This document shows positions 35,594 through 39,486 of a stretch of 64,000 bases of DNA, in pieces. The stretch is from the NCBI RefSeq assembly GCF_003334815.1, contig NZ_QOWO01000005.1. One strand, written 5' to 3'. Each line of letters begins with the position of its first letter. Within the stretch, counting starts at the first letter, position 1. Below the pieces are notes generated by a model, which made no database searches, was not told where the DNA came from, and saw only the letters and a program-made list of their open reading frames with translations. Position numbers and translations under genes: made by a program. This DNA comes from Escherichia coli (GTDB taxonomy: Bacteria > Pseudomonadota > Gammaproteobacteria > Enterobacterales > Enterobacteriaceae).

Positions 35594-36493
35594 ATGCTCT
35601 CTCGACATATCAATTATTTTCTTGCCGTGGCTGAACATGGCAGCTTCACCCGTGCCGCCAGTGCGTTGCACGTCTCCCAACCTGCGCTTTCCCAGCAGAT
35701 TCGCCAGTTAGAGGAGAGTTTAGGCGTGCCGCTGTTTGACCGTAGCGGGCGAACGATTCGTCTCACTGATGCAGGAGAAGTCTGGCGACAGTACGCCAGC
35801 CGGGCGTTACAGGAACTGGGGGCGGGTAAACGGGCGATTCATGATGTTGCCGATCTGACGCGAGGATCGCTGCGTATCGCCGTCACCCCCACCTTTACGA
35901 GCTACTTTATCGGCCCCTTAATGGCGGATTTCTATGCGCGCTATCCCAGCATCACGCTCCAGCTACAGGAAATGTCGCAGGAGAAAATCGAGGATATGCT
36001 TTGCCGCGACGAGTTGGACGTTGGGATTGCCTTCGCGCCTGTGCATTCGCCGGAGCTGGAGGCAATTCCTTTACTGACAGAAAGTTTAGCGTTAGTCGTG
36101 GCGCAACATCATCCGCTGGCCGTCCATGAACAGGTGGCGTTGAGTCGCTTGCATGATGAAAAACTGGTCCTGCTCAGCGCGGAATTTGCCACCAGAGAGC
36201 AAATTGACCACTACTGCGAGAAAGCGGGGCTACATCCACAGGTGGTCATTGAGGCGAACTCAATTAGCGCGGTTCTGGAGCTGATTCGCCGCACTTCCCT
36301 TTCCACATTGTTACCAGCAGCGATTGCCACACAACATGACGGGCTTAAAGCTATTTCTCTTGCCCCGCCACTACTGGAGAGAACGGCGGTTTTGTTGCGG
36401 CGGAAAAATAGCTGGCAGACAGCCGCCGCGAAGGCATTTTTGCACATGGCGTTGGATAAATGCGCGGTTGTTGGCGGAAATGAATCACGGTAG
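35594..36493 (+). CDS. cynR: LysR-family activator of the cyn operon
   Basis: ORF track 35510..36493; start [41 protein letters not shown] at ATG 35594 gives 299 aa; divergent from cynT. Confidence 0.9.
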
Positions 36494-36520
36494 CCGCTGA
36501 CACAGGTCTGCGGCTGGAAT

Positions 36521-36602
36521 TGCCTGATGCGCTACGCTTATCAGGCCTACGAGTTCAGTGCTCTACGTAGGCCGGATAAGGCGTTCACGCCGCATCCGGC
36601 AT
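36521..36602. repeat. BIME/REP palindromes between cynR and codA
   Basis: gcctgatgcgctacgcttatcaggcctac...gtaggccggataaggcgttcacgccgcatccggc. Confidence 0.8.
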
Positions 36603-36629
36603 AAACTAAGCTCGCTGTAACCCAGTCGT

Positions 36630-37913
36630 TCAACGTTTGTAATCGATGGCTTCTGGCTGCTCCAGATATACGGTGGTTTGTGCCGGTTGTGTGCTGGCAA
36701 TCACCTTGCCGCCACGTACCGAATAACGTACCGGAACCTGACGGCGCAGCGCATCAAACCCATTTTCAGCCGGCAGGATAATCAGGTTGGCGCTGTTTCC
36801 GGCGGCAATGCCGTAATCCTGCAAATTCAACGTCCTTGCGCTGTGGTGGGTGATTAAATTCAGGCCATCGTTAATCTGCCCGTAGCCCATCAACTGGCAA
36901 ACATGCAGCCCCATATGCAGCACTTGCAGCATATTCGCCGTTCCCAGCGGATACCACGGATCGAAGACATCATCGTGACCAAAGCAGACGTTAATGCCGG
37001 ACTCCAGCATCTCTTTAACGCGCGTGATGCCGCGACGTTTTGGATACGTATCGAAACGTCCTTGCAGATGAATATTGACCAGCGGGTTGGCGACAAAGTT
37101 AATACCGGACATTTTCAGCAAGCGGAACAGGCGTGAGGTATACGCCCCGTTATAGGAGTGCATTGCCGTGGTGTGGCTGGCGGTGACTCGCGCGCCCATG
37201 CCTTCATGGTGCGCCAGGGCAGCAACGGTTTCGACAAAGCGCGACTGCTCGTCATCGATCTCATCACAGTGAACGTCGATGAGACGGTCGTATTTTTGCG
37301 CCAGGGCGAAGGTTTTATGCAGCGACTCCACGCCGTATTCACGGGTAAATTCAAAATGCGGAATCGCCCCCACTACATCTGCCCCTAAGCGTAACGCCTC
37401 TTCCAGCAACGCTTCACCGTTGGGATACGACAAAATCCCTTCCTGAGGGAAGGCGACGATTTGCAGATCAATCCACGGCGCGACTTCCTGCTTCACTTCC
37501 AGCATTGCTTTCAGCGCAGTTAGCGTTGCATCCGAAACATCGACATGGGTACGCACATGCTGAATGCCGTTGGCAATCTGCCATTTCAGCGTTTGCCATG
37601 CGCGTTGTTTCACATCGTCATGGGTTAATAACGCTTTGCGCTCGGCCCAGCGTTCAATGCCTTCAAACAGCGTGCCGGACTGATTCCAGTTCGGTTGTCC
37701 GGCGGTTTGCGTGGTGTCCAGGTGAATATGTGGCTCCACAAACGGCGGTATAACTAAACCTTGTTCGGCATCCAGGCTGTTTTCAGTTATGGGCATCACG
37801 CCGGATTGCGCATCAATGGCGCTGATTTTTCCGTCCTGCAGATGAATCTGCCACAGCCCCTCTTCGCCTGGTAACCGGGCGTTAATAATTGTTTGTAAAG
37901 CGTTATTCGACAC
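36630..37913 (-). CDS. codA: Cytosine deaminase (amidohydrolase superfamily)
   Basis: GTG start at 37913 ([16 protein letters not shown]) gives 427 aa; metal-binding HIHLD motif. Confidence 0.95.
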
Positions 37914-39162
37914 TGTTAGCCTCCACATGCGTCATTGCTGCTGTCGTTTTACGATTCAAAATCGGGTTAAGGATCAGATAGCTCAGCGCGCCACCTAATA
38001 CCGCGTTGACCGGAACAATTCCCGGTAACCAGTGGCCTGCAGCAATCCCCAAGGCGACCGCCAGAATCGCCACCCAATTGACACTCATCATACGCGTGGT
38101 CGCAAAGTGCTCATAGCGGCGACGGTTCATCAGATAGTCGGCGATGATCACGCCACCCACTGGAGGAATAGCTGCCGAAAGGAAGGTCAACCAGCCGACA
38201 AAATTGTTATACAGCCATAATGCGCAGACCGTACCGATAATACCGTTGATTACCGAAAGGGTTTTGCTCGACATCCCGGTAATGTTGGCGAAACCTAAAC
38301 CCGACGCATAGAGTGCGTTATCGTTGGTGGTCCAGATATTCAGCCCCAGCACCACAATCGCAGGCAGCAGCAGGCCCTGAGCAATCATCACATCAGAGAT
38401 ATCCGCCATGCCCAGTGCCGCAGCGCCCGCTGCACCGAAAATAAACATCAACGAGTTGCCGAGGAAAAAGGCCACCATCGCCACCAGCACCGCCAGTTTG
38501 GCATTGCGACCAAACCGGACAAAGTCAGCGGTGAGCGTACCCGCACTGATAAATGACCCCACAACCAGCGCCAGCGCGACATTGAAATCTAACGGTTGTG
38601 CGGGAACGACCGCTTTTAATGCGTCCAGGCCGCCCATGCCGTTAACAGCCAGCCACACGGAATAACCGCCCAGGCAGGCGATAGCCGGAACCGCAATCAC
38701 CGAAAGAACCGTCAGCGCCGAAATGCCAAAAAAGACGGTGACGGTCATCAGTAAACCGGAAACGGCAATCAGCAAATTAATATCCAGCCCGGTTGCCTTA
38801 CCCACCGGAATGGCAAACATCGCCACACCGACGCCAAACCAGCCAACCTGAGTTCCGCCCAGTAGCAGTGAAGGCAGCCATGAGCCTTTAACACCAAACG
38901 AGAAGCGAGCAAGAAGATGAGTGGTCAGGCCGGTTTTTGCGCCAATGTAACCGAGAAATGAAGTGTAAATACCGAGGAGAAGATTACCGATGAGAACTGC
39001 GAGGAAGAAATCATGATAGCTAAGACCGGTTCCGAGAGTGCCGCCGGTCCACATACTGGCGGAAAAGAAGGTTAATCCCAGCATGACGAACGTCAATGCC
39101 AATACCCCTTTCCGCGCCGACTGCGGGACTGGCCCCTGGCTAAAGTTGTTATCTTGCGACAC
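37903..39162 (-). CDS. codB: Cytosine permease
   Basis: 419 aa, GTG start; 11-nt overlap with codA start. Confidence 0.95.
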
Positions 39163-39228
39163 GAAATTCCCCCTTTTTGCTGTTTGAAACCCAAAAAATC
39201 CGCCGCATTCTATTCATCTGAAGATAAA

Positions 39229-39244
39229 AAGCAATCGTTTTCGT
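39229..39244 (-). promoter_or_regulatory. Candidate PurR box upstream of codB
   Basis: Minus-strand ACGAAAACGATTGCTT matches the PurR palindrome consensus ACGCAAACGTTTGCGT at 13 of 16 positions; about 70 bp upstream of the codB start. Confidence 0.4.
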
Positions 39245-39314
39245 GGGGAAATATATTTTTTATATGAATGAGTGCAAAAAGGTGGGGGAAAAATTATCGG
39301 TGTAAAAACAGTGG

Positions 39315-39486
39315 GTAGGCCTGATAAGACGCGTCAGCGTCGCATCAGGCATCTGAGCATGGTGTCGGATGCGACGCGAGCGCCTTATCCGACCTACGGT
39401 TCAGGTCCGTAGGCATGATAAAACGCGTCAGCGTCGCATCAGGCATCGGCACACAGTGCCGGATGCACCGCGCGACGCATCCGACA
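39315..39486. repeat. BIME: several REP palindromes between codB promoter region and prpE 3' end
   Basis: gtaggcctgataagacgcgtcagcgtcgcatcaggcat...gtcggatgcgacgcgagcgccttatccgacctac... repeated. Confidence 0.85.

Follow-up and report, generated by a model that had tools for sequence, protein, structure and literature searches.

The PUR box upstream of Escherichia coli codBA is an established PurR operator

The 16-bp sequence ACGAAAACGATTGCTT, which lies on the minus strand at positions 39229-39244 of the 64-kb stretch of E. coli DNA analysed here (the window) and reads AAGCAATCGTTTTCGT on the plus strand, is an established PurR operator. We consider it very probable (roughly 95%) that this is the operator through which PurR represses codBA, most likely by keeping RNA polymerase off the -35 element. 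A preliminary description of the site, made from the DNA sequence, had called it a candidate PurR operator in the codB promoter region, consistent with purine-responsive control of cytosine uptake and deamination. That PurR interpretation is correct and had already been established, in that the site, the regulator and the physiological logic are all to be found in the literature and in RegulonDB; the word 'candidate' is therefore too weak.

Sequence and statistical strength of the box

The 16-mer sits in the 329-bp intergenic spacer between codB and prpE, and the GTG start codon of codB (39162) lies 66 bp downstream of it. Many E. coli genomes, that of K-12 MG1655 among them, match the 601 bp surrounding the site at 100% identity, and the RefSeq annotation of the identical K-12 region names the flanking genes as codB (cytosine permease) and prpE. 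On the prpE side, a 64-nt unit that contains inverted repeats of the GCCTGATAAGACGCG.../GCCGGATGC... type occurs twice at positions 39315-39486; the copies lie 94 bp apart and have diverged to 84% identity. Judged from these repeats, this is a REP/BIME-like cluster. It fills the interval from the codB promoter to the stop codon of prpE and explains why BLAST placed the 601-bp query at many additional sites in each genome (median 9). The window itself comes from a non-K-12 E. coli, since a roughly 200-bp segment comprising the 3' end of cynR and a REP-like element is present as a single copy (window 36493-36630); the same segment is tandemly duplicated in the K-12 MG1655 record (1395-1730), in which the annotation labels the second copy a partial hypothetical pseudogene. 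Apart from this duplication, the window is 99.9% identical to MG1655 over about 8.6 kb.

Compared with the ideal palindrome ACGCAAACGTTTGCGT, ACGAAAACGATTGCTT is mismatched at positions 4, 10 and 15, so that the match of 13 out of 16 positions given in the preliminary description was counted correctly. However, the mismatch count by itself has no significance in 64 kb. A consensus search allowing up to three mismatches found one match in the window against 0.5 expected, and at least one such match was present in 42 of 100 shuffled windows. For a motif that is degenerate at several of its positions, as that of PurR is, mismatch counting is too crude.

The matrix scan for PurR sites that had been proposed together with the candidate was carried out with a leave-one-out weight matrix, built from the 27 other PurR motifs in Table 1 of Cho et al. 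2011 (PMC3159470) with the codB site excluded. The codB box scored 22.1 bits, for which the exact p is 1.9e-8 per position; a score this high is expected 0.0024 times in the window and about 0.18 times in the E. coli genome as a whole. The value falls in the upper half of the training sites, which range from 12.0 to 25.4 bits. Indeed, the three palindrome mismatches coincide with weakly constrained positions of the motif: among the 27 sites, A occurs more often than any other base at position 4 (11/27) and ranks second at position 10 (10/27), while T at position 15 is rare (2/27 published PurR sites). Counting mismatches to an idealised palindrome thus undervalues true sites, whereas a weight matrix of known sites separates the codB box cleanly from background.

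The matrix scan revealed no second PurR site in the codB-prpE intergenic region. The next independent match in the window, AGGACAACGGTTTCGT at 22927-22942, reached 14.4 bits, a score at which 0.54 matches are expected. We rejected it as a second PurR site, since its score is at chance level and it is absent from the published ChIP peaks (PMC3159470). By offset from MG1655, it falls in the mhp gene region.

Published evidence and promoter layout

Cho et al. 2011 print the identical 16-mer, at MG1655 354,064-354,079, as the PurR ChIP-chip motif of codB-codA (PMC3159470), which bears out the operator reading of the preliminary description. In the same study, the codB-codA peak (354,056-354,323) had a log2 value of 1.41 in the presence of adenine and no peak was seen in its absence, a behaviour that fits the binding of corepressor-loaded PurR. 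Expression of codB dropped 34.5-fold upon addition of adenine, codA and codB both responded to deletion of purR, and the two genes are among the 23 scored as directly repressed by PurR (PMC3159470). The purine-responsive control of codBA suggested from the sequence had, in other words, already been published as purR- and adenine-dependent expression of codB and codA. The enrichment at codBA was moderate, at 1.41 as against 2.08 for the pur genes (PMC3159470). The reported peak is also narrow and lies off-centre relative to the motif. If, as we assume, codB starts at 354,146 in MG1655, the proximal end of the published motif is 67 bp away from it, in agreement with the window.

Cho et al. refer to codBA as a 'newly found' member of the PurR regulon (PMC3159470); the title of an earlier paper by Andersen, Kilstrup and Neuhard (1989; pmid 2673119) already names purR in the regulation of codA. 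The RegulonDB evidence paper rates the PurR site of codBA as having strong evidence, without cross-validation to 'confirmed' (PMC3548332), because there is only one strong type of evidence. We found no footprint or operator-mutation experiment at codBA in the accessible literature.

Shin and Murakami (PMC7039003), citing Qi and Turnbough 1995, give the initially transcribed region of codBA as 5'-ATTTTTTG. Within the intergenic region this string is unique, being found at 39199-39192 of the minus strand, and +1 was set at A39199 for all promoter positions. On this basis the features of the locus are as follows.

39251-39265, minus strand: NAC-like ATA-N9-TAT element ATATAAAAAATATAT, at -66 to -52 with its centre at -59; from sequence.
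39229-39244, minus strand: PurR operator (PUR box) ACGAAAACGATTGCTT, at -45 to -30, with the central CpG at 39237/39236; from sequence, matrix, ChIP identity and conservation.
39229-39234, minus strand: putative -35 hexamer TTGCTT, at -35 to -30, formed by the promoter-proximal 6 bases of the box; from its spacing, 16 bp upstream of TAGAAT.
39207-39212, minus strand: -10 hexamer TAGAAT, at -13 to -8; from sequence and conservation.
39192-39200, minus strand: start-site region G-ATTTTTTG, with the transcription start(s) and the T6 tract; a unique string, placed by the quotation in PMC7039003.
39168-39174, minus strand: Shine-Dalgarno-like AGGGGGA upstream of the codB GTG; from sequence, a GGAG-type block being conserved in the alignment.
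37903-39162, minus strand: codB, cytosine permease, the first regulated gene; open reading frame with its GTG start at +38, and RefSeq annotation of the identical K-12 region.
36630-37913, minus strand: codA, cytosine deaminase, the second gene of the operon; open reading frame, and annotation 1731-3014 of the MG1655 record mapped by constant offset.

The box is therefore in the codB promoter region, as the preliminary description had placed it, and covers -45 to -30, ending 66 bp before the codB GTG. It also has the general character of a PUR box. These sites are 16-bp imperfect palindromes of the form ACGNAAACGTTTGCNT with a central CpG step, a pattern that ACGAAAACGATTGCTT follows at 22.1 bits. 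They lie in the promoter or 5' region of a nucleotide-metabolism unit, typically at the -35 or -10 element, and the codB box covers TTGCTT upstream of codB and codA. Finally, they are conserved in orthologous promoters of species that have the same regulator, which is the case here for 28/29 Enterobacterales and 9/10 Pasteurellales.

TTGCTT matches TTGACA at 3 of 6 positions, TTGCTT and TAGAAT together match at 8 of 12, and a consensus promoter scanner made no call there. The scanner called instead a promoter-like pair, TTTGCA-17-TATATT (39278 to 39250, minus strand), which overlaps the NAC-like element. We rejected this pair as the codBA promoter and regard it as a coincidence of consensus, given that both the published start ATTTTTTG and the conserved block lie downstream. 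Transcription from the pair would initiate inside the PurR box, and we found no evidence of its use.

Two further inputs have been associated with this promoter. We take the start-site switching in the start region to be between its G and its A. Similarly, ATA-N9-TAT is presumed to be the NAC consensus and -59 to be the position of the NAC site at codBA, both of which reportedly come from Muse et al. 2003. The element ATATAAAAAATATAT (39251-39265) is probably the Nac activation site of codBA, and the 18-genus alignment gave no conservation of it outside E. coli. Nac activates both codB and codA (PMC9853098), and UTP-sensitive start-site switching with reiterative transcription at the T6 tract of the codBA start region is described in general terms in PMC7039003.

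Conservation and alternative readings

Scanning one genome per species for CodB gave 80 loci, which belong to Enterobacterales, Pasteurellales, Vibrionales and a few others, and at each of them the 350 bp preceding codB were scored with the leave-one-out matrix, using a threshold of at least 15 bits. A site above threshold was present 57-67 bp before the codB start codon at 28/29 loci in Enterobacterales (median best score 20.8 bits) and at 9/10 in Pasteurellales (20.2 bits). For comparison, control windows of the same size taken from the coding sequence of codB reached 15 bits at 2/39 loci; shuffled upstream regions did so anywhere in 23 of 15,400 cases and at the 57-67 bp distance in 0. In Vibrionales, about 15 of 36 loci had a site of at least 15 bits (15 to 21 bits), at about 100-105 or 312-315 bp upstream; being variable in score and position, these sites were left out of the conservation support. 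The PurR-like sites of Vibrio and Photobacterium form two position classes, of which the distant one may belong to a divergent neighbouring gene.

Not only the box but also its setting is conserved. The layout of box, 16 nt, TAnnAT (the -10 element), 7 nt and A plus T6 or T7 is identical in 33/37 loci; the 16-nt spacer beside the box varies freely, in contrast to the fixed box, -10 element and start region. The -35/-10 spacing and TAnnAT are kept in each of the 28 Enterobacterales loci that have the box; in the 18-genus alignment the -10 columns T72, A73, A76 and T77 are invariant, as is the T-run of the start region across genera. Within E. coli, the divergent species representative differs from the window at about 20 of 168 upstream positions but at 0 of 16 in the box.

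The box positions that are invariant in the 18-genus alignment (3, 5, 6, 8, 9, 11, 12, 13, 14 and 16) are those richest in information in the E. coli regulon motif. Indeed, the information per position in the orthologous boxes correlates with that in the 27 regulon sites (Spearman rho 0.85, p = 3e-5). This pattern argues that PurR binding itself, and not just a promoter hexamer, is under selection.

E. coli CodB shares 94% identity with its counterpart in Hafnia paralvei, where the PurR box is identical and the spacing is 65 bp. Identity to Proteus is 84-85%, and only 82-84% to Citrobacter and Salmonella, which are closer relatives and have a spacing of 58 bp. These comparisons hint that the E. 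coli codBA locus, promoter included, was exchanged horizontally.

Since the promoter-proximal 6 bases of the box are the -35 hexamer, conservation of the proximal half could in part reflect the -35 role, and we considered whether the block might be conserved only as a core promoter (the -35 element with its upstream contact region), PurR binding being incidental or irrelevant to expression. One position does suggest a promoter constraint. Position 15 of the box (39230), the fifth base of the -35 hexamer, is T, A or C but never G in the 37 orthologous codB boxes, whereas G, the regulon consensus, is found in 18/27 of the other PurR sites. A joint constraint imposed by the -35 hexamer may explain why G is absent. 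However, the distal half of the box, ACGAAAAC (-45 to -38), lies outside the -35 element and is equally invariant at the PurR contacts, including the central CG, and the pattern of free and fixed positions tracks the PurR motif, as the above correlation indicates. Moreover, expression of codB and codA is altered in a purR deletion (PMC3159470). Conservation as a promoter alone is consequently very unlikely.

We also considered whether the site might mainly be used by a different member of the LacI family whose operator is similar, namely a paralogue of PurR, for example RbsR or CytR. LacI-family operators share a central CG and a palindromic layout, and the accessible literature yielded no in vitro PurR footprint at codBA. 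Nevertheless, the ChIP signal was obtained with tagged PurR and was dependent on adenine, deletion of purR alters codBA expression (PMC3159470), and the box scores in the upper half of genuine sites on a matrix specific to PurR. We accordingly give a paralogue very little weight. Least probable of all is that the box resembles the PurR palindrome by chance and regulates nothing, since, although a match with up to three mismatches is expected 0.5 times per 64-kb window, the matrix score, the published ChIP-chip peak and purR-dependent expression (PMC3159470) and the fixed position of the box across two orders of Gammaproteobacteria effectively refute it.

The codB operator may be doubly constrained, as a PurR half-site and as a -35 element. 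It is possible, and we suggest it only tentatively, that it belongs to an ancient module of ~50 bp that integrates purine and UTP signals and in which the operator is held below maximal affinity.

Repression of codBA and its relation to other operators

The results presented above are compatible with a model whereby purines act on codBA at the step of initiation. When hypoxanthine or guanine is plentiful, a corepressor-loaded dimer of PurR, a member of the LacI family, would bind the imperfect palindrome ACGAAAA-CG-ATTGCTT. In the crystal structure of PurR with hypoxanthine and the purF operator (Schumacher et al. 1994), the hinge helices are said to open the minor groove at the central CpG. 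PurR bound at -45 to -30 would then shut sigma-70 RNA polymerase out of the promoter by steric exclusion, competing with region 4 of sigma-70 and with the C-terminal domain of the polymerase alpha subunit for the same DNA. Because the operator covers -45 to -30, including the -35 hexamer, competition with polymerase is the most economical mechanism, and occlusion of the -35 element, rather than a block at a later step, is most likely the basis of codBA repression. PurR motifs generally lie at -35 or -10 elements, and Cho et al. conclude that such sites repress initiation (PMC3159470).

The purine signal would be combined, on the same roughly 70-bp promoter, with activation by Nac under nitrogen limitation (at about -59), and UTP-sensitive start-site switching with reiterative transcription at the G-A-T6 start region would provide a third input. 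As the box lies between the Nac site and the core promoter, we speculate that PurR may also interfere with activation by Nac.

The closest counterparts of the codBA site are the pur-regulon operators that lie over core promoters (purF, purT, purMN, purHD, purC and others). They have the same ACGNAAACGTTTGCNT palindrome, central CpG and -35/-10 location, and share with codBA corepressor-dependent occupancy and repression of initiation, the latter being inferred for codBA. However, these operators govern purine synthesis, whereas that of codBA regulates pyrimidine salvage and nitrogen scavenging through cytosine uptake and deamination. The proximal half-site of codBA is also weaker (AAGCAATC in place of ACGCAAAC), and its ChIP signal is the lower of the two (1.41 versus 2.08). 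In function, codBA resembles carAB, pyrC and pyrD, where one PUR box in the promoter region likewise places pyrimidine metabolism under purine cross-control. The difference here is one of evidence: the carAB, pyrC and pyrD sites are backed in RegulonDB by classical footprints or mutations, while codBA has a single strong evidence type (PMC3548332).

The roadblock operators of purB and purR share repressor and motif with codBA but are situated inside the transcribed or coding region and block elongation (PMC3159470), in contrast to the codBA box, which is upstream of +1 and over the -35 element. The upp-uraA and pyrBI promoters have in common with the G-A-T6 start region of codBA a T-tract mechanism, UTP-sensitive reiterative transcription. 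A mechanism of this type senses UTP at the start site, independently of the PurR box, and belongs to a neighbouring part of the codBA promoter.

Mildly new in this analysis are the absence of G at position 15 and the fixed spacing of the PurR box, -10 element and T-tract as a module across two orders. The codBA site seemingly still lacks classical footprint or mutational confirmation, and the fixed architecture offers a precise design for such an experiment. The regulation itself is of the textbook kind rather than a discovery: an excess of purines shuts down the uptake and deamination of cytosine, alongside other pyrimidine genes.
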